In this document: positions 4,469 through 46,547 of the stretch, piece by piece
Layout: each line of letters opens with the position of its first letter
Numbering within the stretch: position 1 is the stretch's first letter
Origin: a virus
DNA: 64,000 nucleotides
IMG/VR virus record: IMGVR_UViG_3300028027_000001
Reading direction: 5' to 3' (one strand)
Program-made: the position numbers and the translations under genes
The notes under the pieces: model-generated
The model's input: the letters and a program-made list of their open reading frames with translations, nothing else
What the model was told of the DNA's origin: nothing
Databases searched by the model: none

Positions 4469-5311
4469 TTATTTTTTATACATCCATTTGTATCCTTTGG
4501 ATGTTTTATTTTTACCATTTAAACATAAATTTATACCAGCTATAGGAATGTTTAACTCAATACTAGCATGCGTTTGAGATTTCCATTCTTTGATGATATT
4601 ATTGTCCGTATCCAACTGGAATATGGGTTTTAGTCCTTTGCCTATTTTATTTTGGGCAATTTTGTCACTATGTTCTTTGGTGCGTTTCATTTTCTTACCA
4701 ACAGGTTCAATGTTCAACGGGATTGTTAATTCTTTGTATTTCCATTGAAACCCACCGGATGTTTTGTATCGTTGTTTAAGGCAATTATTTATGTCTACAT
4801 CCAAAATATTATATACATCTAGTTGAGATTTCCACTCTCTTATAAAATCACCATCCAAACTATACTGGAGAACGGGTTTGAGTCGTTTTTCTATAACATC
4901 CTGAGGGAGTGGTTTGCCTGAAAGAGGATGAGGTTTATCCATCCAATATTCTTTTATAGATTTAGAGCGCCTTTTATTAGATGTTTCAGTTTGGATATGT
5001 GGGCCACTTTCACCATCTACTAAATGACAAAATAAAGCTTTATCCCAGGTATATTCATTTATAAATTGCGTCTTATGATGGATTTCCCTTTCAATTAATA
5101 AGGTAACATCACACTCTTCTATAATATCAAATACATGGTTCTCAGGACCATACTTTTTGAGGGAATTATATATCTTTTGTTGTTTATGACATTTTAAGTG
5201 GAAATACTTATAGTACCTTGACAATATATTTTTACTTTTTCCTATATATACATTCCCTTTAGGGTTTGTTATTTTGTAAATTCCTACGATACCGTTCTCT
5301 GGCTTTTTCAT
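4469..5311 (-). CDS. GIY-YIG homing endonuclease with NUMOD1-like repeats; probable start 5311
   Basis: GIYKITNPKGNVYIGKS; two KPV/IxQ..LD...IREWKS...I..CL...KTS.G..W repeats. Confidence 0.88.
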   Translation of the reverse strand: MKKPENGIVGIYKITNPKGNVYIGKSKNILSRYYKYFHLKCHKQQKIYNSLKKYGPENHVFDIIEECDVTLLIEREIHHKTQFINEYTWDKALFCHLVDGESGPHIQTETSNKRRSKSIKEYWMDKPHPLSGKPLPQDVIEKRLKPVLQYSLDGDFIREWKSQLDVYNILDVDINNCLKQRYKTSGGFQWKYKELTIPLNIEPVGKKMKRTKEHSDKIAQNKIGKGLKPIFQLDTDNNIIKEWKSQTHASIELNIPIAGINLCLNGKNKTSKGYKWMYKK

Positions 5312-5408
5312 CTTGTTGTTCTTTGTTGGTCCAATAAAATTCTCGGGCACGTTGTCGTTTGACAGCCTGTTTTTCTTCTTCAGTTTGATATTTTTTTAAA
5401 CGTCCCAT
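5259..5408 (-). CDS. Unannotated 49-aa basic/charged ORF overlapping the GIY-YIG start
   Basis: Hand translation: MGRLKKYQTEEEKQAVKRQRAREFYWTNKEQQDEKARERYRRNLQNNKP*. An ATATGTATA motif lies just upstream. Confidence 0.55.
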   Translation of the reverse strand: MGRLKKYQTEEEKQAVKRQRAREFYWTNKEQQDEKARERYRRNLQNNKP

Positions 5409-20125: not shown

Positions 20126-20497
20126 TTAGATAGGCGCGACAGTCTCAGAATTCATATTGAATCCCACTACTCCTTCTACTTTACGTATCTGTGCAGCTAT
20201 TTCACCCATTTTTTCACGGCTGAATCCTCCAGATTTCATGAATGGGTATCCATCTACTTTTACGGTTAATACTGCTTTGAAATTGCGTTTATCTTGCTCA
20301 TGGTAAGGCAATGTTTCTTTTTCGGATACTATGGTAACACCGGTAATTGCACGGATGCCAGATAATATCTCTTTTTGTGGTCTAATTTCCAAATTAGTAA
20401 CTAACCCACCTACCATTTTGTATTTGTCTTGGTATTCTTCGCTTAGTATACGTTTAATTTCCTCACGGATAATTGATTTGATTGGATTATTTTTCAT
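20126..20497 (-). CDS. Hypothetical protein with IIREEI leader; probable start 20497
   Basis: MKNNPIKSIIREEIKRILSEE; promoter motif at 20512-20520. Confidence 0.7.
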   Translation of the reverse strand: MKNNPIKSIIREEIKRILSEEYQDKYKMVGGLVTNLEIRPQKEILSGIRAITGVTIVSEKETLPYHEQDKRNFKAVLTVKVDGYPFMKSGGFSREKMGEIAAQIRKVEGVVGFNMNSETVAPI

Positions 20498-20550
20498 ATT
20501 ATAATATATGGTATAAATATACAATGGGTGGGACAAGTAGGCAAGAGAAG

Positions 20551-22404
20551 TTAATAAGTTTTAACCCACCTGTACGTGCCTGAATTATATAGTCGGTATA
20601 GACCCATTTGGTGGGTAATTTCAAATTCAGTGAGTTTTGGGTCGTACCCCATTTTGATTAGCTCGGATTTCCTATATGCGTACCTGTTGCGTAGTGTGGA
20701 TGTTTTGTTTTCATAGTACATATAGGATATGTTGGTGAATGAACCATCTTGAAAGTTTAACGACTTGTACAAATTGCCGCTGGAGTAATCATTGTCTGAA
20801 TAGCTTACTAGATATTGTGGTGTGTATGTTTTCTCAAAGTGTTTAAGTAGTCTGGATGCTCCTCCAACTATATTTGTGTGGAGTAAGGTGCAATATCTTA
20901 CTAGTTCATATTTACCACATGTTTGTTTGTTTCCTAAATTTACTCGTAGTTTACTGAATCCCATGCATGCTACTAATTGTCCATCGTGGTACAACCCTAG
21001 TTTAATTTGTGTAGGTGAATGTCCTTGTATATGGTTTAACGTGCAAAATTCTTTGTAGTCTTTACTAGATACAGACTGAATGGTACATTTACGGGCAAAT
21101 ATTTTGTTTGGGGTTAAATTCAGTTTGTTTAGTAACATGGATTTAACTATTTTTTGTTTAATTGGATTGGTCCACTGATGTTCCCAAATATGGAATATTT
21201 TAATACCGTGACCAGAATAAAAATCGGATTTTTGTTTGTGGAAGTTTGGTGTTTTAAATAAATGTGAATGCCAATAGCACCCATTTACCTCCAGCCCCAA
21301 ATTAAATTCGGGTAAAAATATGTCTATTTCCTTCCTACCCATAGTATGTCTAGGTATGATTTTAGTGGGTGAACATGATGATATGAAGTCAATTAATTCA
21401 TGTTCGTAGGATGATGAATAGTTTAAATGATCTGACGCGCATTGATTACATCCGCAACCTTGTAAATGATCACCAATGGTTTGCTCAAATTCACCATGTA
21501 CGGGACAAATGATTGTGGTTTTACTGAATCTACCGTTGTATGTGGATTTAGAGTAATCGTATTTGTTGTCGTGCATCAGTGGTGCCTTCTTTATGAATTC
21601 ACGGAAATATTTGTGGTTTTGGTCAGTTTTGGAACAATATGGACAACCATAACCTTGCAAATGATACGCTGGTTTGGTGGTAAAATCACCATGTTTTTTA
21701 CAAGTAATTATTACATCCTCTATATTACTGGTATATTGGGTTTTATTGTAGGTGTATTTGTTTGGGTGGGCTGATTGTGCTTTTGATATGAATTCGGAGG
21801 TAGTGGAACGTTTAACACATTTAGGACATCCACTACCATTCAAATGTGTGAATATTGTTTGTTTAAATGTATGGTTATTAGTACAAGTAATGGTGATTTT
21901 TTCCAACCCGTTCACGTATTCAAAGTTATCGTATGTGTATTTGTCGCCGTGTATTTCTTTAAATCTACCCAGCACAGTCTTCTTGTCTAAACGTATACTT
22001 GTTTTGGCGCACAATGGACACCCACGCTGTGACGATATATGTTCTTCAGGTGTTAGTTGGAAATCACCATGTTCAGGACACGTTATAGTAATAGGGGTGG
22101 AGTTGTTTATATATAATGAATTATTGTAGGTGTATTTGTTTGGGTGGATTATTTGTGACTTATATATGAAACCATCCAAGTTCGATATATTACCACCCAG
22201 TGTTTCTCTCCTGCATTTGGTGCATAAAGGTAAATTGTTTTTGAATAGTTTGTATGGTATGAATTTAAATTCACCATGTGTTGAACACACTATAGTAATA
22301 GCATTGTTTGAGTTTGTGTATGTTACTTTAGTTAAATCATAATTGTACGACCCATAGTGTTCTTGCAACTTATTTAATATATGTTCTTGTGTATGTGGTT
22401 TCAT
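20551..22404 (-). CDS. Homing-endonuclease-like protein: repeated CxxHGxF/CxxC zinc modules + Vsr/DUF559-like nuclease + C-terminal GNAT-like domain
   Basis: About 5 repeats of Y.Y....Y......I.C..HG.F.....H..G.GCP.C; EIDIFLPEFNLGLEVNGCYWH; IFARKC...NHIQG...YELVRYC...GGASRLL. Confidence 0.78.
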   Translation of the reverse strand: MKPHTQEHILNKLQEHYGSYNYDLTKVTYTNSNNAITIVCSTHGEFKFIPYKLFKNNLPLCTKCRRETLGGNISNLDGFIYKSQIIHPNKYTYNNSLYINNSTPITITCPEHGDFQLTPEEHISSQRGCPLCAKTSIRLDKKTVLGRFKEIHGDKYTYDNFEYVNGLEKITITCTNNHTFKQTIFTHLNGSGCPKCVKRSTTSEFISKAQSAHPNKYTYNKTQYTSNIEDVIITCKKHGDFTTKPAYHLQGYGCPYCSKTDQNHKYFREFIKKAPLMHDNKYDYSKSTYNGRFSKTTIICPVHGEFEQTIGDHLQGCGCNQCASDHLNYSSSYEHELIDFISSCSPTKIIPRHTMGRKEIDIFLPEFNLGLEVNGCYWHSHLFKTPNFHKQKSDFYSGHGIKIFHIWEHQWTNPIKQKIVKSMLLNKLNLTPNKIFARKCTIQSVSSKDYKEFCTLNHIQGHSPTQIKLGLYHDGQLVACMGFSKLRVNLGNKQTCGKYELVRYCTLLHTNIVGGASRLLKHFEKTYTPQYLVSYSDNDYSSGNLYKSLNFQDGSFTNISYMYYENKTSTLRNRYAYRKSELIKMGYDPKLTEFEITHQMGLYRLYNSGTYRWVKTY

Positions 22405-22431
22405 GTAGGTGTTTTTGAGGTAAAATTATGT

Positions 22432-22462
22432 ATAGTATACAAAAAATCCCTTGGGTAGCCAA
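22432..22462 (-). promoter_or_regulatory. Promoter upstream of endonuclease 20551..22404, overlapping the tube-gene terminator
   Basis: TTG-N18-TGTATACTAT. Confidence 0.55.
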
Positions 22463-22467
22463 GGGAT
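22441..22467 (-). terminator. Intrinsic terminator after the tail tube gene
   Basis: ATCCCTTGG-CTAC-CCAAGGGAT followed by a T-tract on the minus strand. Confidence 0.8.
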
Positions 22468-22481
22468 AATTAGAAGTATAT

Positions 22482-23017: not shown

Positions 23018-24760
23018 TTATTGAGGGAATTCTGCTCCTGTTGGTAATACTACGAAGTCTAGTGAAATAAATTCTGCTGTTTTTGTTGGTTGGATGTAAA
23101 TTTGACCTACTAATTGGTTTCTGTCGATAACATCTGGTCCATTATTAGTATCATCCATCACAATTCTAAATGCATATAAACCTTGTTTTTGTTGGATGTT
23201 TTCTAGGTATGGATTAACTTTAGCTAAGAATGAAAATCTAGTTACAGCTGTGTTTTGTTCAAATACGATGTTGTCTGCTAATTGACCAATATATCCTTTT
23301 AATTCAATCAATAAACGTCTAACATTTACTCTGTCTAGAGCAGAAGCACCTTTTTGGAGTGTTTTCTGACCGTATACAGCCACACCCACTTTAGGCATTG
23401 TTGCTAACGGGTTGATGTTGTTTGTATATAGATCGTCTTTATTTGATTGTGTTAATTTATATTGAGCACGTGCTACATTGTTTAATCCACCTCTGTTAAT
23501 ACCAGCTGGTGCGAACCAAGGAGCAGCAATTTTATCGTTGTTTGCGTATACACCTGGGATTAATGTAGATGCAGGTACCCAAACATATTTTCCAGTTGCT
23601 GGGTCAATTATGTTACACCATGGCCAGTAAGCGGCAGCATATGAAGTGTCTCTTGACTGTGCTTGAGAAATTGCGTCTGTTACGGTTGAATTATAATCAG
23701 TTAAATCTACTACATATAAATTATCTCCACGGTTTTGGGTGTTGGTGATAATTGTAGATATTGTTGATGTATGTAAATCGTTAGTTAATCCTGGTGTAGT
23801 TAATATGTTAAATCTATATTCGTCTTTGTTTGCTAATAGGTTAATCATGTTAACATAATTATCAGCAACTAAACCTTGTGTATTTGATGAATTGAGGGCC
23901 TCGTAGAAATTAGCACCTCCTTTAATTGTACCAGTAGCACCACCAAATAAACATTGTTGAGCAACGGGAATTTTATCAGCATATCCGGCTTTTGGTAAAC
24001 CGTTTGCGTCTAAATAATCAGGTGTTGTAACGTTAACTGCTGATACTCTAACATATTTTGATGCGTTAGGGAAAGAACCACTGAATTCCATTTGTTGTGT
24101 TGATGGGTTGTAATTCAATTTAGTATCTCCAATTACACGTGCAATATAGTTTGGTGATTTTGGATCTAAGTTTACACCGTTAAATGATTCAAGTACTATT
24201 TTCTTGTTTGTCGTGTCGTTACCTTGACGAATAACTACGTTAAATGTACCTGATGATGTGTTTGGTGAAGTGATTTCAAATCTAATGTTGTCTGCAGTAC
24301 CTGATGTTAAACTACCGTTAGTACCTGTTGTTGTATTGTTTTGATCAACACCTTCACTAAGTGTTTCAAGTTCAAATATATTTACACCACCTCCAGTAAC
24401 GTATGATGAGCTAACATAACCATCAAACACGTATGATGAATCGTCGGCAACAACCGATGAAGTTGCTGGGGAGTAAGAACCAGATACTACTCTTGCAACT
24501 AATAATGAATTTCCACCGTAGTTGAAATAATTGTATGCTGCAATTGATGTCAAATAAGAATAAACATCACTTCCACTTGTGATGATGTCACCGAATATGT
24601 TTTTATATTCTGAATAAGATGTAACTACCGTTGGAACTTCAACTGGGCCTTTTACTGTTGGGCCTATAATAGCTGCACCAACTTGGATAGGTTGACCCGA
24701 TAGATATGATTTATCTACCTCGTTTAATGTTACTCCTGGAGATATTGAAAAGTTTCCCAT
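23018..24760 (-). CDS. Tail sheath protein (copy 2)
   Basis: SPGV, AIIGPTVKGPV, PWFAPAGINRG, GQKTLQ, LDRVNVRRLL, VFEQN, PTKTAEFI. Confidence 0.95.
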   Translation of the reverse strand: MGNFSISPGVTLNEVDKSYLSGQPIQVGAAIIGPTVKGPVEVPTVVTSYSEYKNIFGDIITSGSDVYSYLTSIAAYNYFNYGGNSLLVARVVSGSYSPATSSVVADDSSYVFDGYVSSSYVTGGGVNIFELETLSEGVDQNNTTTGTNGSLTSGTADNIRFEITSPNTSSGTFNVVIRQGNDTTNKKIVLESFNGVNLDPKSPNYIARVIGDTKLNYNPSTQQMEFSGSFPNASKYVRVSAVNVTTPDYLDANGLPKAGYADKIPVAQQCLFGGATGTIKGGANFYEALNSSNTQGLVADNYVNMINLLANKDEYRFNILTTPGLTNDLHTSTISTIITNTQNRGDNLYVVDLTDYNSTVTDAISQAQSRDTSYAAAYWPWCNIIDPATGKYVWVPASTLIPGVYANNDKIAAPWFAPAGINRGGLNNVARAQYKLTQSNKDDLYTNNINPLATMPKVGVAVYGQKTLQKGASALDRVNVRRLLIELKGYIGQLADNIVFEQNTAVTRFSFLAKVNPYLENIQQKQGLYAFRIVMDDTNNGPDVIDRNQLVGQIYIQPTKTAEFISLDFVVLPTGAEFPQ

Positions 24761-24813: not shown

Positions 24814-26514
24814 TTAAAGTATAGCTCCTGTAGGTAATACATTAAATTCAAGTATAATGAATTCTGCTGTTTTTGTTGGTTTTAAATATATTTGACCCAC
24901 CAATTGATTATTGTCTATTACTGTTGGTGTATTGTTTGTTTCGTCCATTACTACTTTATACTCATATAAACCTTGTTGTTGTTGCACAGTAGCTAGGTAT
25001 GGGTTAACTTGTGCCAAAAATCTATTACGTGTATTAGATGTATTTTGTTCAAACACTAAAGTGTTTGCAATTTGGCCAATATAATTATTTAATTCAACTA
25101 ACAATCTTCTAACGTTTACACGATCCAAAGCATTTGCTTTTTTCTGTAGTGTTTTTTGACCAAATACAACTACACCAGTTCCTGGTATTGTTGATATTGG
25201 GTTAATGTTTGCTTCATATAGTGAATCTCTATTGCCTTGGGTTAATACACGTTCAACACGTGTTACGTTTGACATTACACCGCGATTAATGCCGGCTGGT
25301 GCTATCCAAGGATAAGATATGTTGTCGTTAAATGCATATACCCCAGGAATCAATGTGGAAGCAGGTACCCAAACGTTTTGTCCTGTTGATGGGTCGACGG
25401 TTTGAGCCCAAGGCCAATATGAAGCTACAAATGATGTATCAAATGAAGATGCTTTATTTACAGTAGTTGCTATGTTTTGATTGAATTGTACTAAATCTAC
25501 TATAGCCATCGTATCGCCACGCTCTGTTACCATTGGTATCAATTTAGTATTGATTACATTAAAATGGTCTACAAATGAATTATTGCCTATAAGTCCAGGT
25601 ACTGTGATAAAATTGTATTTGTATGAATCTTTATTAGCTAATAATGCTATTGATTCAACATATGAAGATGCTGGGATACCTTGTGAATCTGAATTGGTAA
25701 TTGCTTCGTAGTAGTTTGCAGCATATCCTGTTGGGATATTTTTTCCAGTTGCTCCTCCAAATGCACCACTAGTAGCTGTTGGAATCGAACTAGTATATTG
25801 TGGTTTTGCAATATCGTTATTGTCTAAATAATTTGGTGTTGGAGTGTTTACTTGTTTTACACGAACATACTTTGAGTTGTTTGGATAACTACCAGTTAAC
25901 TCAAGGTAGTATTCACCATTATCAGAACGTAAATTTTCAGTTGTATTACCAATTATTTTTTCAATATAGTTTGGTGAAAATGGATCCAGGGATAAATTAG
26001 AAAATGTTTCAAGTACAGATGGGGAATTTGTTGTATCATTACCTTGTCTAATTAATAATGAAAATGTTCCAGATGATGTATTAGGTGATGTGATTTGGTA
26101 TCTGAAATTATCAGCAGATCCACTATCTAAAGCACCATTTACTTCATTGCTAACACTATTCATGATTTCACCTTCTGATAATGTTTCTAATACGAATGAG
26201 GATTGAATAGATGCTGTAGCAGGGGTGAATGAACCGCTTACAACGCGAGTTACCAAAAGTGAAGTACCTCCGTTGTTGAAATAATTATACGCGGATATTG
26301 ACGTTAAGTATGAGTATGTTTGAGATCCACTTACTAAAACATCACCAAATTTGTTTTGATATTCACTATATGTAGTAACTATGGTTGGGATGTTGACAGG
26401 ACCTTTTACGGTTGGGCCTATAATGGCTGCTCCAGCTTGTGCAGGTTGTTGTTGTACTGCTGATTGATCGTTTACATTAATAACTACACCTGGTGATACA
26501 ATGGATGTTGACAT
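24814..26514 (-). CDS. Tail sheath protein (copy 1)
   Basis: Same sheath motifs as 23018..24760. Confidence 0.95.
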   Translation of the reverse strand: MSTSIVSPGVVINVNDQSAVQQQPAQAGAAIIGPTVKGPVNIPTIVTTYSEYQNKFGDVLVSGSQTYSYLTSISAYNYFNNGGTSLLVTRVVSGSFTPATASIQSSFVLETLSEGEIMNSVSNEVNGALDSGSADNFRYQITSPNTSSGTFSLLIRQGNDTTNSPSVLETFSNLSLDPFSPNYIEKIIGNTTENLRSDNGEYYLELTGSYPNNSKYVRVKQVNTPTPNYLDNNDIAKPQYTSSIPTATSGAFGGATGKNIPTGYAANYYEAITNSDSQGIPASSYVESIALLANKDSYKYNFITVPGLIGNNSFVDHFNVINTKLIPMVTERGDTMAIVDLVQFNQNIATTVNKASSFDTSFVASYWPWAQTVDPSTGQNVWVPASTLIPGVYAFNDNISYPWIAPAGINRGVMSNVTRVERVLTQGNRDSLYEANINPISTIPGTGVVVFGQKTLQKKANALDRVNVRRLLVELNNYIGQIANTLVFEQNTSNTRNRFLAQVNPYLATVQQQQGLYEYKVVMDETNNTPTVIDNNQLVGQIYLKPTKTAEFIILEFNVLPTGAIL

Positions 26515-44843: not shown

Positions 44844-46547
44844 TTAAAGCACCATTTCAAATCTAGTAACACCACAATCCCATACTCGGTGGTAACCCAT
44901 GTTTCGCATTAGTTCTACCTCGGTATGGTTGTCAGTGTCCATACCCATTTTTTTGAGTACACCTTTATTGTAATTGAACCGGTGTTCCCTACTCATATAG
45001 TCTTTGGTATACCAGTAACCATGTTGTGATGTTGATACATGTTTAAAACCACAAGTTAAATATAAATTGTTTACAGGTGATGACCATCGGTTATCTGCAA
45101 ATGAATATATGTGTTGTGGGTTTACTTCACGGATAAAATGTTTGAGTAAACGCGATGCAGCACCAATTACATTGGTGTATTTTTTGTTACAGAATCGAAT
45201 GAGTTCCCATGTATCGCCATTGTTTACGTTTGTTTTACCTATTGCGGTACGTGGTTTTCTGAATGTCATTATGGATACCAGTTCGTTCTGGTAGTATAGT
45301 CCGTATTTGTAGAATGCTTGGTCGCGCCCCTGAATGTGGTTTTGGTCGAGGAATGTGTTTTTAATGTTTGGTGCCACATCACGTATTTCACATTTACGAG
45401 CAAATATAGTGGTGGTGTTTGCTTTTAGTTCGTTTTGTATTCGTGAATACACAATGTCTTTTTTGTTTAGTAATTCGTCCGAGAATATTTGTATGAGTTT
45501 AATGTTTAACTGGCTATATTTGGTATATAAATTGCGGGTATAGTTTTTTTCATATAACGTGCTGTCCTTCAAATCAACTACGTTGATACCCAATCCTAAA
45601 TCAGGTATATATATGTCTATTTCGCTATTGTAATTATGTAATATACTCCCGACATATAGACTGGATATATAGGATGTTAATTTAAATATATTTGGTTTAT
45701 GTTTGGTTAGTTCATGTTTGTATTGATTATGGATATGTTTTTGTGTTTCAATGTGGTTTAAATCATATTCTTTGATGGTGTTCTCTATTAATGATGTACC
45801 GTATTGCCATTTGTACCCACCACATGTTTTCTGTTTACCATTACAACATGCTCGAATGTCGGTGGAGTTAATGCGTATGCCTTGTTTAGCGTATTCTTTT
45901 TCGGCATAGTAGCTATTTGGGTATTCACGTATGAATGTACCTTCCAAGTCGTATTGCAATACGGTTTGTTGTTTGATTTTCACATTGTTTTGAAGTCCAG
46001 CTAGTATTTGTTGTATGTTGTCGTCATCCGACCACTGGAATATACAACCACGGAATGTTTTTTGTTTGGATTGATTGCATGACTGAATGATACCACCTGT
46101 GGTGTCTTTGATGTCCGGGAATAATATGGTTTTGGCTTGGGAGGGTGAATCGAATTTAGCTATGAATGTACCATCCAGTTTGTATACATTTACCGCACGT
46201 GTGTTTTTAATGGATGAAATGGACATTTTTTGTTTAGTAGTGGTTGATTTGTTGCCACCTTTACCGTCGTTTAACATGGTAAACATAGCTGAATCCCATC
46301 CGTATTGGTCTACGTGGGTTTGTTTATGATGTGCTTCACGTTCATCTAGTATGTCTGGGCTGCATTGTTCGAGTATCTCAAATGTGTGGTTAGCGATACC
46401 ATGATGTATGAGTGAATTATATAGTTGTGGTTGACCTTTGCAACGCAAATTTTGGTAGTGGTACCAACGTTTATCTATGTCAAGTGATTGACCGATATAT
46501 ATTTTATTGGTTGGTGATGTGATTTTATATATGCCTATTTTCTTCAT
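44844..46547 (-). CDS. GIY-YIG endonuclease + NUMOD1 repeats + degenerate Vsr-like domain + C-terminal GNAT-like domain
   Basis: GIYKITSPTNKIYIGQS; two NUMOD1-like repeats; EIDIYIPDLGLGIN; IFARKC...NHIQG...WELIRFC...GAASRLL...SFADNRW. Confidence 0.8.
   Translation of the reverse strand: MKKIGIYKITSPTNKIYIGQSLDIDKRWYHYQNLRCKGQPQLYNSLIHHGIANHTFEILEQCSPDILDEREAHHKQTHVDQYGWDSAMFTMLNDGKGGNKSTTTKQKMSISSIKNTRAVNVYKLDGTFIAKFDSPSQAKTILFPDIKDTTGGIIQSCNQSKQKTFRGCIFQWSDDDNIQQILAGLQNNVKIKQQTVLQYDLEGTFIREYPNSYYAEKEYAKQGIRINSTDIRACCNGKQKTCGGYKWQYGTSLIENTIKEYDLNHIETQKHIHNQYKHELTKHKPNIFKLTSYISSLYVGSILHNYNSEIDIYIPDLGLGINVVDLKDSTLYEKNYTRNLYTKYSQLNIKLIQIFSDELLNKKDIVYSRIQNELKANTTTIFARKCEIRDVAPNIKNTFLDQNHIQGRDQAFYKYGLYYQNELVSIMTFRKPRTAIGKTNVNNGDTWELIRFCNKKYTNVIGAASRLLKHFIREVNPQHIYSFADNRWSSPVNNLYLTCGFKHVSTSQHGYWYTKDYMSREHRFNYNKGVLKKMGMDTDNHTEVELMRNMGYHRVWDCGVTRFEMVL

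Follow-up and report, generated by a model that had tools for sequence, protein, structure and literature searches.

Two Hef-type homing endonuclease genes with a Mom-like domain in a 64,000-nucleotide viral sequence

Two genes in a viral sequence of 64,000 nucleotides (IMG/VR record IMGVR_UViG_3300028027_000001, the whole of which is called the window here) are free-standing homing endonucleases of the Hef type, belonging to PHROG 559/3339. Their products, referred to as copy 1 and copy 2, were each shown to combine a variable N-terminal targeting part with a constant C-terminal effector module, in which a Vsr-like nuclease domain is packed against a GNAT domain of the Mom family. This fusion of a Mom-like domain with a nuclease is normal for a very large phage family, and was previously noted in jumbo phages by Iyer, Anantharaman, Krishnan, Burroughs and Aravind in 2021 (PMC7824862). 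A sequence-only reading of the window had taken copy 1 to be something other than a plain homing endonuclease, a distinction that was not supported, as Hef-like enzymes as a rule combine a nuclease with a Mom-like domain and both genes are mobile insertions. For this window the outcome is mostly annotation, of two ordinary family members, one with an informative nuclease swap; the Mom-like domain is nonetheless the best conserved part of the family, and its possible role is considered below. Table 1 lists the features.

Table 1. Features of the window discussed in the text
Feature	Position	Strand	Basis
Insertion block with copy 1, 1,930 bp	20546..22475	(-)	blastn breakpoints against L002, junction alignment
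Terminator-like hairpin between tail tube gene and copy 1	22446..22467	(-)	9-bp stem then T run; consensus match only
Copy 1, P0001, 617 aa; Hef-type free-standing homing endonuclease gene	20551..22404	(-)	ORF, PHROG, tblastn
Five zinc ribbons, copy 1 residues 1-327	21424..22404	(-)	Pfam DUF723 and DUF4379; regex for repeats
Vsr-like / EDxHD nuclease domain, copy 1 residues 328-432	21109..21423	(-)	Foldseek, Pfam, family conservation
Mom-family GNAT domain with helical insertion between last strands, copy 1 residues 433-617	20554..21108	(-)	PHROG, hhalign, Foldseek, VIA
Copy 2, P0002, 567 aa; GIY-YIG/NUMOD endonuclease with Hef-type C-terminal module	44844..46547	(-)	ORF, PHROG, Pfam
GIY-YIG nuclease and NUMOD-type DNA-binding region, copy 2 residues 1-277	45717..46547	(-)	Pfam
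Decayed Vsr-like domain, copy 2 residues 278-378	45414..45716	(-)	Family alignment columns
Mom-family GNAT domain, copy 2 residues 379-567	44847..45413	(-)	PHROG, Foldseek, residue columns
Stand-alone GIY-YIG/NUMOD endonuclease gene, 293 aa	4469..5350	(-)	tblastn, BLASTP, Pfam

Family membership, insertion sites and selection

The reading frame of copy 1 was located exactly where the sequence-only reading had placed it, and its product matches PHROG 559 (E 8.8e-128) and PHROG 3339 (E 3.5e-85) along its full length; for copy 2 the values are E 2.3e-60 and E 4.5e-76. Phage proteins matched by copy 1 in tblastn bear the annotation "Hef-like homing endonuclease", and 929 phage records were matched in such searches, many of them annotated Hef-like. 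The Hef-like family amounts to at least 15,000 protein clusters and 397 phage genomes; the domain was found in 15,461 representative clusters, the best 150 of which all have it C-terminally, mostly in proteins of 400-800 amino acids.

Both genes were shown to be discrete, free-standing mobile insertions, lying between genes at sites that stand empty in close relatives. Where the window has the copy 1 block, locus L002 has 53 bp, next to a tail tube protein that is 98% identical, and in L003 the site is filled by a copy 1 with 95% amino acid identity (tblastn survey of 80 related loci). Copy 2 lies between the MCP and PhoH genes, and in most related loci where both of these genes were found they are 85-130 bp apart and copy 2 is absent; in L082 copy 2 is present together with a second Hef-type gene in tandem. 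In L160 an apparent 57-residue remnant of a Hef-type C-terminus was seen. The two sites were also considered as hot spots specific for endonucleases, which was rejected: other inserts found there are a secreted-looking protein of 657 amino acids, a phosphatidylserine-decarboxylase-like pair and unknown ORFs, and the sites are therefore termed variable only.

All domains of both copies are under strong purifying selection, with dN/dS of about 0.06. The ratio is 0.066 for copy 1 and 0.03 for its Mom-like part, 0.063 for copy 2 and 0.095 for its decayed Vsr-like domain (against L082); for comparison, it is 0.036 for the tail tube gene and 0.08 for the major capsid gene.

Domain architecture of the two proteins

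The C-terminal modules of copy 1 and copy 2 share 35% identity over 283 amino acids (BLASTP, E 1e-40), a likeness far beyond chance. That the second protein carries the same terminal domain as the first had been recognized from the letters alone, and the common C-terminus stands; the shared block is not just the last 180 residues, as then described, and begins about 100 residues earlier, at residue 336 of P0001 and residue 289 of P0002, taking in the Vsr-like domain and then the GNAT domain. In both copies the two domains are predicted to form a single rigid module (pTM 0.91 and 0.90).

Ahead of this module the two proteins differ in kind. The "zinc repeats" remarked on earlier in copy 1 proved to be five C-x2-H...C-x2-C units (regular-expression search; residues 40-64, 109-132, 174-196, 235-257 and 300-322), in a region matching Pfam DUF723 (E 3e-10) and DUF4379, a treble-clef zinc finger (E 2e-9); there was also a weak CapR-homology match. 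These repeats are presumed to be sequence-specific DNA-binding modules. Copy 2 instead starts with a GIY-YIG domain (PF01541, 23.0 bits with a cut-off of 22.6) and a NUMOD1 element (23.1 bits, cut-off 22.8), and it matches TIGR01453 with E 1.5e-13 and 51.3 bits, which is under the 56.05 cut-off of that model. The product of the stand-alone gene at 4469..5350, with Pfam matches to GIY-YIG and I-HmuI NUMOD-like models, is a paralog of this N-terminal half without the Hef-type module (tblastn E 2e-36; BLASTP 33% identity, E 2e-40).

In copy 1, the modeled nuclease domain was matched by Foldseek to the catalytic domain of I-Bth0305I (3r3p_B; TMt 0.78, rmsd 3.1 over 100 columns, 21% identity), with an acidic and histidine active-site pattern common to both; the Pfam matches, to Vsr and MTES_1575, are both weak. 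Taylor et al. (2011, PMC3239194) had already placed Hef-type enzymes in the Vsr-like family of I-Bth0305I. By the family alignment, the active site of copy 1 appears nearly intact: E334, E359, D361, E372, N374, H379, H389, K392 and E408 are retained, and D409 of the family is replaced by H, as it also is in close relatives of copy 1. Copy 2, in contrast, reads E-D-N-V-gap-T-L-S-D at nine positions where the family consensus is E-D-E-N-H-H-K-E-D; only three of the nine scored positions are retained, namely the E-x-D pair and the last D, and equivalents of E372, N374, H379, H389, K392 and E408 are lacking. The fold of this decayed domain is still predicted (pLDDT about 96), with secondary-structure elements in the same order as in copy 1, and 3r3p was absent among the Foldseek matches listed for the copy 2 model. 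With its own Vsr-like site lost, copy 2 presumably cuts with its GIY-YIG domain.

The C-terminal domain adopts a GNAT fold (model pLDDT 96) that is specifically Mom-like, as the sequence-only reading had proposed from motifs. All of the motifs that it quoted in copy 1 (NHIQG, LGLY, YELVRYC, GGASRLL, SYSD and GNLY) were found, and residue 435, at the start of IFARKC, falls at nucleotide 21102 as it had stated. PHROG 1384, "Mom-like DNA modification protein", is matched by copy 1 (E 3.4e-9) and copy 2 (E 5.8e-7), and alignment to the Mu Mom family with hhalign gave 85.6% probability and E 5.6e-6 over 125 columns, with the catalytic motifs in register. Mu Mom (8bv8_A) is the top Foldseek match of both copies (E 8.7e-8 and 1.3e-7 for copies 1 and 2). 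In VIA-align, copy 1 aligned with Mom at Z 13.2 over 165 residues (model residues 110-290), the longest aligned stretch, most other listed GNATs reaching 124-137; RimI, Ard1/Naa10 and Naa50 gave Z 13-14 with rmsd 2.1-3.0. Model helices at residues 247-272, between strands, correspond to the helical insertion of Mom.

Detection of this homology required an alignment of Mom relatives. With the single Mom sequence hhalign was weak, and pairwise BLASTP of Mu Mom with copy 2 was not significant. A profile search of PDB sequences did not recover Mom and gave one weak GNAT match only, to glyphosate N-acetyltransferase; phmmer with the module against PDB sequences found chance matches only, and the C-terminal domain alone gave nothing informative against Pfam and NCBIfam. 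The Pfam Mom model, PF25680, matched neither P0001 nor P0002 even at E up to 10, but homologs about 40% identical pass its cut-off of 27.1 bits (P0072 with 36.8 bits, P0130 36.3, P0073 31.6 and P0124 27.3).

Equivalents of Mom H58, E108, R111, S124, D149, R151 and Y159 are present in copy 2. Across 152 family members, H458 of copy 1 (Mom H58), E500 and R503 (E108 and R111) and Y546 (Y159) are invariant, and S517 (S124) is kept in 130; R111 and S124 align with R451 and S465 of copy 2. Both of these residues are essential in Mu Mom (PMC13219725), and R111 is confined to the Mom clade, not shared by GNATs in general (Karambelkar 2020). At least 137 of the 152 have a G-G-A loop ahead of helix 3; judged from the model, G514-G515-A516 at this strand-to-helix junction would be GNAT motif A. 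R574, K579 and E593 of the helical insertion are each retained in at least 146 members. Other Mom positions are less constant: the R151 column holds D in 50, R in 50 and S in 34 of the 152 (Asp in copy 1, with no adjoining basic residue, and Arg in copy 2), D149 is Asp in both copies but in only 95 members, and by hhalign neither Y59 nor the dimer residue W48 is retained.

Possible roles of the Mom-like domain

Free-standing homing endonucleases leave their target uninterrupted, and it is understood only in part how the genome that carries one avoids being cut by it. The reading preferred here, to which we give somewhat less than an even chance, is that of a single-chain homing element that both cuts and protects, the Mom-like domain being a working enzyme, not a passenger, that marks the resident target. 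It would bind a donor, either acyl-CoA or, as for Mu Mom, an aminoacyl-tRNA, and modify a flipped-out base, most likely adenine at N6, in the DNA gripped by the N-terminal modules. Marked in this way, the target on the resident genome would be spared by the nuclease of the element itself, and co-infecting genomes without the mark would be cut and converted. For the window genes this is plausible, and it is not a new idea, because Iyer et al. (2021, PMC7824862) proposed it. If correct, a built-in, site-directed modifier of the Mom type would be a neat answer to self-cleavage of the carrier, and the family would supply adenine-modifying enzymes that are programmable and targeted by sequence.

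Besides the enzyme-like conservation of its residues and the purifying selection, members in which the neighboring nuclease has degenerated speak for a function of the domain itself. The Vsr-like domain is decayed or missing in 15 of the 152, nearly all of which keep every Mom-like invariant, and among ten of these that were checked three have another nuclease-type domain upstream (T5orf172, GIY-YIG or a second REase-like domain). That the GNAT domain outlives decay of the Vsr-like domain, and that the GIY-YIG paralog does without the module, suggests that the module adds something beyond cutting or targeting. Several points count against a modifier: the split of the R151 column among D, R and S, the loss of Y59 and W48, the partial retention of D149 and the lack of a PF25680 match. 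A polypeptide that cuts and protects one and the same site must also win a kinetic race, which was counted against the cut-and-protect reading. In vitro, Hef reportedly cut both DNA lacking the homing endonuclease gene and the DNA of its own phage, which would argue against full self-protection.

A wider form of the idea, which we hold only tentatively and think doubtful, is that Hef-type enzymes in general, in more than ten thousand clusters, may be single-chain "homing restriction-modification" elements that mark a single adenine within their own target site with a bulky acyl or aminoacyl group, drawn from acyl-CoA or a charged tRNA. Self-cleavage, a problem for free-standing homing genes, would be solved by such a mark, which would also explain why the domain can outlive its original nuclease, as in copy 2. 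Type IIG/IIC restriction-modification enzymes, for example MmeI, unite cutting and protecting in one chain with one recognition part; they use SAM-dependent methyltransferase domains, serve cell defence and are cited as an analogy, with no homology to the window genes claimed.

A non-catalytic role was weighed against cut-and-protect and appears somewhat less likely: the Mom-like domain would dimerize or clamp DNA to position the nuclease, perhaps flipping a base at the center of the target, with its pocket kept for binding. Mu Mom forms a tight dimer and I-Bth0305I is dimeric on a pseudopalindromic site, the module is predicted to be rigid, and the helical insertion, thought to sit in the DNA major groove in Mom, is among the very well conserved parts; R151, essential in Mom, and Y59 are also not conserved, copy 1 having no basic residue at the former. 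Against this stands what is invariant: H58, E108/R111, S124, Y159 and the glycine-rich loop all line the pocket for donor and acceptor in Mom as in other GNATs, and a pure scaffold would have no use for them. Nor is the dimer residue W48 of Mom retained, and the domain is unchanged where the adjacent nuclease has decayed and another nuclease is present with its own NUMOD region. A mere relic on its way to being lost is very improbable. Homing endonuclease genes often decay once fixed, of which the 57-residue remnant in L160 may be an example, but the selection data contradict this for the window (30.5 synonymous against 4.5 non-synonymous changes in the Mom-like part of copy 1), as does the retention of some 20 positions in at least 130 of the 152 members, six of them invariant, in proteins only about 40% identical overall.

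Exclusion of foreign DNA in the manner of restriction-modification is also improbable, if less so than a relic. Here the Mom domain would modify adenines throughout the genome, the nuclease would attack unmodified DNA of the host or of superinfecting phages, and homing would be incidental. Iyer et al. (2021, PMC7824862) predicted such a system for jumbo phages, the closest phage record by tblastn is that of a Tenacibaculum jumbo phage, and Mu Mom itself guards its entire genome against restriction. Against this, the N-terminal halves vary and are built as modular arrays for DNA binding, as in site-specific homing enzymes, up to 10-11 different Hef-like copies occur in one genome, and the genes are insertions, present or absent as discrete units, adjoining conserved structural genes. 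PADLOC returned only "homing endonuclease" models and no defence-system model, and Hef of phage U5 cuts one specific gene, nrdB (Edgell 2010, PMC2988022).

Comparison with known systems

Mu Mom modifies N6 of adenine in double-stranded DNA and depends on Gly-tRNA(Gly) to do so, its use of charged tRNA being a finding of 2026, and it shields the whole phage genome from restriction. Mom (PF25680, PDB 8BV8) and the domains of both copies have in common a GNAT core with a helical insertion before the last strand, the residues H58, E108/R111, S124, Y159 and in part D149, and the motifs S-[FY]-[AS]-D and G-x-x-Y. They differ in that identity is only 13-16% and that R151, Y59 and W48 are not conserved across Hef-type GNAT domains; the loop leading into helix 3 is glycine-rich, G-G-A-S, like that of CoA-using GNATs, in place of the P-R-N-S-E-S of Mom, so that the donor may differ from that of Mom. 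Mom also stands alone, whereas the Hef-type GNAT domain is always fused to nuclease and targeting domains.

I-Bth0305I, the EDxHD prototype (PDB 3R3P), resembles copy 1 in the fold of the nuclease domain, but it is intron-encoded, has that domain at its C-terminus and NUMOD repeats, and is without a GNAT domain. Free-standing GIY-YIG/NUMOD endonucleases of the Seg type (T4 SegA-G and relatives of I-TevI) resemble residues 1-277 of copy 2 and the paralog at 4469..5350; Seg enzymes stop after the DNA-binding region, whereas copy 2 runs on into the Hef-type module. The fusions of Iyer et al. (2021, PMC7824862), of a Mom-family GNAT with a restriction-endonuclease-fold domain predicted to protect and attack, are evidently the same kind of protein, framed there as a restriction-like conflict system; no link to the Hef homing endonucleases was found in that paper, and none of the literature searched brings Mom, GNAT and homing endonuclease together.

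The nearest relatives are Hef of phage U5 and the Hef-like enzymes of T4-like, Campylobacter, Klebsiella, Xanthomonas and jumbo phages, within which site-specific cleavage and homing in mixed infection are known only for U5 Hef. These enzymes and both copies share the order of variable N-terminal DNA-binding part, Vsr-like nuclease and conserved C-terminal domain, and are encoded by free-standing, polymorphic insertions adjoining conserved genes. Copy 1 departs from the family in having H in place of D409, and copy 2 in having its working nuclease swapped for GIY-YIG, with the Vsr-like domain kept as a decayed fold.

Two genes with a common effector module

The window is a piece of a tailed phage, with neighbouring genes for tail sheath, tail tube, baseplate hub, major head protein and PhoH, and with Tenacibaculum phage PTm1 as its nearest named phage match by tblastn. 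The motifs quoted in the sequence-only reading were all found in copy 1 (residue 435, at IFARKC, corresponds to nucleotide 21102), and the C-terminal domain it had described as common to copies 1 and 2 is real (35% identity over 283 aligned residues, E 1e-40). Its extent had been underestimated, since the alignment starts at residue 336 of P0001 and residue 289 of P0002, so that the common block is about 100 residues longer and comprises two domains.

The proteins combine a variable targeting part with a constant nuclease-plus-Mom-like effector module. Copy 1 begins with five C-x2-H...C-x2-C zinc-ribbon units (residues 40-322, matching Pfam DUF723 and DUF4379). AlphaFold modelling of residues 328-617 (62-sequence alignment, pLDDT 96.1, pTM 0.91) yielded a nuclease part that matches the I-Bth0305I catalytic domain 3r3p_B (TMt 0.78, rmsd 3.1) and a GNAT fold for residues ~437-617 (Z 13-14 to RimI, Ard1 and Naa50). 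The Mu Mom crystal structure, 8BV8, was the top overall Foldseek match (E 8.7e-8) and gave the longest structural alignment among the listed GNATs (165 residues vs 124-137 for most others), because a helical insertion before the last strand is common to Mom and copy 1. Copy 2 has a GIY-YIG domain and NUMOD-type motifs, followed by the same two-domain module (pLDDT 93.9, pTM 0.90), with 8BV8 again the best match (E 1.3e-7). A third endonuclease gene of the window encodes a product 33% identical to the N-terminal half of copy 2. Elsewhere, two adjacent genes of 580 and 566 aa are cross-similar (~70% DNA identity across ~600 bp) and look like tandem sheath-like paralogs.

Coordinates of features in the window and in related viral contigs (L-numbers)
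Feature	Location	Strand	Product (aa)	Remark
GIY-YIG/NUMOD homing endonuclease gene	4469..5350	minus	293	stand-alone, without Hef-type module
orf136	20126..20536	minus	136	directly downstream of copy 1; without PHROG match
Copy 1 insertion	20546..22475			blastn breakpoints
Copy 1 (P0001)	20551..22404	minus	617	
Vsr-like nuclease domain, copy 1	residues 328-432			predicted-structure match to 3r3p_B
Neighbouring gene	23018..24760	minus	580	
Neighbouring gene	24814..26514	minus	566	tail sheath match (PHROG 23)
Copy 2 (P0002)	44844..46547	minus	567	
Hef-type gene	L082:6901-8271	plus	456	directly upstream of copy 2 ortholog; 4-base overlap
Match to last 57 residues of copy 2	L160:7037-7207			tblastn, 46% identity; no long ORF
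Gene at tube-to-orf136 site	L004:5607-7580	plus	657	signal-peptide-like start
Gene pair between head gene and phoH	L113:2568-4201		304; 239-249	

The Mom-like domain: kinship, conservation and selection

Sequence evidence accords with the fold. Both copies match PHROG 1384, 'Mom-like DNA modification protein' (E 3.4e-9 for copy 1, 5.8e-7 for copy 2), and a profile of 49 family C-terminal domains aligned with one of 33 Mu Mom relatives (85.6% probability, E 5.6e-6, 125 columns) with Mom's key residues in register: H58, E108, R111, S124, D149 and Y159 of Mu Mom correspond to H458, E500, R503, S517, D537 and Y546 of copy 1, and R151 to position 539, which is Asp in copy 1 and Arg in copy 2. The importance of these residues in Mom has been described (Silva et al. 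2026, PMC13219725; Karambelkar et al. 2020, PMC7261163), R111 being particular to Mom relatives, not general among GNATs (Karambelkar et al. 2020). The Pfam model PF25680 gave no score for either window protein in a Pfam scan but scores their ~40%-identical homologs above its cut-off; the last domain therefore belongs to the Mom clade of GNATs, though distantly, and is not Pfam Mom strictly. With structure search and profile comparison both leading to Mom, the earlier observation and its GNAT/Mom-like fold assignment were both right.

The Mom-like pocket residues are the family's most conserved part, and they remain where the neighbouring nuclease has been lost or replaced. When 152 family members were aligned over their C-terminal 300 residues, each of the nuclease positions E359, D361, E372, N374, H379, H389, K392, E408 and D409 was conserved in ~85-93%, and the Mom-like positions R438, F453, H458, Q460, E500, R503, G514, Y546, Y561, R574 and K579 in 97-100%. 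Copy 1 retains every nuclease position except D409, replaced by His there, in its L003 ortholog and in one 63%-identical relative; copy 2 retains three of the nine, the E-x-D pair and the final D. The Vsr-like domain is decayed or missing in 15 of the 152 members, nearly all of which retain every Mom-like invariant, and in three of the ten checked among these, the part upstream holds another domain of nuclease type (T5orf172, GIY-YIG or a second REase-like domain). The dN/dS of copy 1 against L003 is 0.066 for the whole gene (zinc ribbons 0.09, nuclease domain 0.05, Mom-like domain 0.03), and that of copy 2 against L082 is 0.063 (decayed nuclease domain 0.095), with tail tube (0.036) and major head (0.08) genes as reference.

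Insertion sites in related contigs

Copies 1 and 2 are mobile insertions under selection. Among 80 related viral contigs found via the tail tube protein, L003 carries copy 1 (95% amino-acid identity), and in L002 (tube 98% identical) the tube gene runs directly to an orf136 homolog without it; the blastn breakpoints are exact, with 1,930 bp in the window vs 53 bp in L002. A terminator-like hairpin lies between the tube gene and copy 1. For copy 2, most related contigs with both the major head gene and phoH identified have a gap of 85-130 bp between the two. L082, whose head protein is 97% identical, carries copy 2 in tandem with a further Hef-type gene; a different Hef-type gene is present in L156, and the L160 match possibly represents what is left of a decayed one. 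Unrelated cargo occupies these sites in other relatives; both are variable regions, not endonuclease-only hot spots.

L082 is the closest relative where the major head gene is concerned; its further protein combines a different zinc-finger N-terminus with a Vsr-like domain that looks intact and a Mom-like domain (Pfam Mom, 25.3 bits). orf136 occurs in some relatives only (L002, L004, L008, L010, L019, L020, L036 and others), and in most the tube gene adjoins the baseplate hub gene directly. At the tube-to-orf136 site, the L004 protein ends in what by eye looks like a type IX secretion sorting domain of Bacteroidota, and L045 has a 733-aa ORF. More distant relatives (L113, L119, L142, L146, L159) have a conserved pair between head gene and phoH, an ORF of no known family and a phosphatidylserine-decarboxylase-like protein.

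Function and comparison with known systems

The module may be an enzymatic cut-and-protect device, the favoured but tentative reading. The Mom-like domain would bind an acyl donor and modify a flipped base, probably at adenine N6, at a site picked by the N-terminal modules, and this modification would keep the element's nuclease from cutting the genome in which it resides. At the start of helix 3, the glycine-rich G-G-A-S loop resembles the pyrophosphate loop of CoA-using GNATs more closely than it does Mom's P-R-N-S-E-S, and a donor other than Gly-tRNA is conceivable. Against cut-and-protect count the non-conservation of Mom's essential R151 (Asp in copy 1), the absence of Mom Y59 and W48, and the finding, reportedly made by Sandegren and colleagues in 2005, that Hef also cut the DNA of its own phage in vitro. 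A non-catalytic Mom-like domain, serving as clamp or in dimerisation, is rather unlikely, and a genome-wide restriction-modification-like role is quite improbable; a relic is contradicted by the selection data.

The earlier proposal of something other than a plain homing endonuclease was not borne out, both whole proteins being regular Hef-like homing endonucleases (for copy 1, PHROG 559, E 1e-128, and PHROG 3339, E 1e-85). Matches by tblastn extend to 929 phage records, many labelled 'Hef-like homing endonuclease', and a search with the Mom-like domain as sole query gave 397 phage records and 895 places, some Campylobacter phages having 10-11 copies; the label 'putative nuclease/acetyltransferase' has already been used by one GenBank annotator. 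Searched exhaustively, 1.8 billion representatives yielded 15,461 clusters with the domain (E up to 0.001), C-terminal in all of the best 150, in proteins mostly of 400-800 residues.

What the window contributes is limited: empty sites are cleanly documented for both copies, copy 2 is a clear instance of a nuclease replaced with the Mom-like domain retained, and single residues point to the Mom pocket as the unchanging core of the Hef-like family. None of the papers covered by a literature search combined 'Mom', 'GNAT' and 'homing endonuclease', and the link between the Hef homing and Mom-fusion literatures may not yet be explicit. The family is huge and already named: Hef of phage U5 is an endonuclease by experiment, with nrdB as target (Edgell et al. 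2010, PMC2988022), and Hef-type enzymes were assigned to the Vsr-like EDxHD family by Taylor et al. 2011 (PMC3239194). The nuclease-Mom fusion is likewise in print for jumbo phages, with 'momylation' predicted to protect and the paired nuclease to attack (Iyer et al. 2021, PMC7824862).
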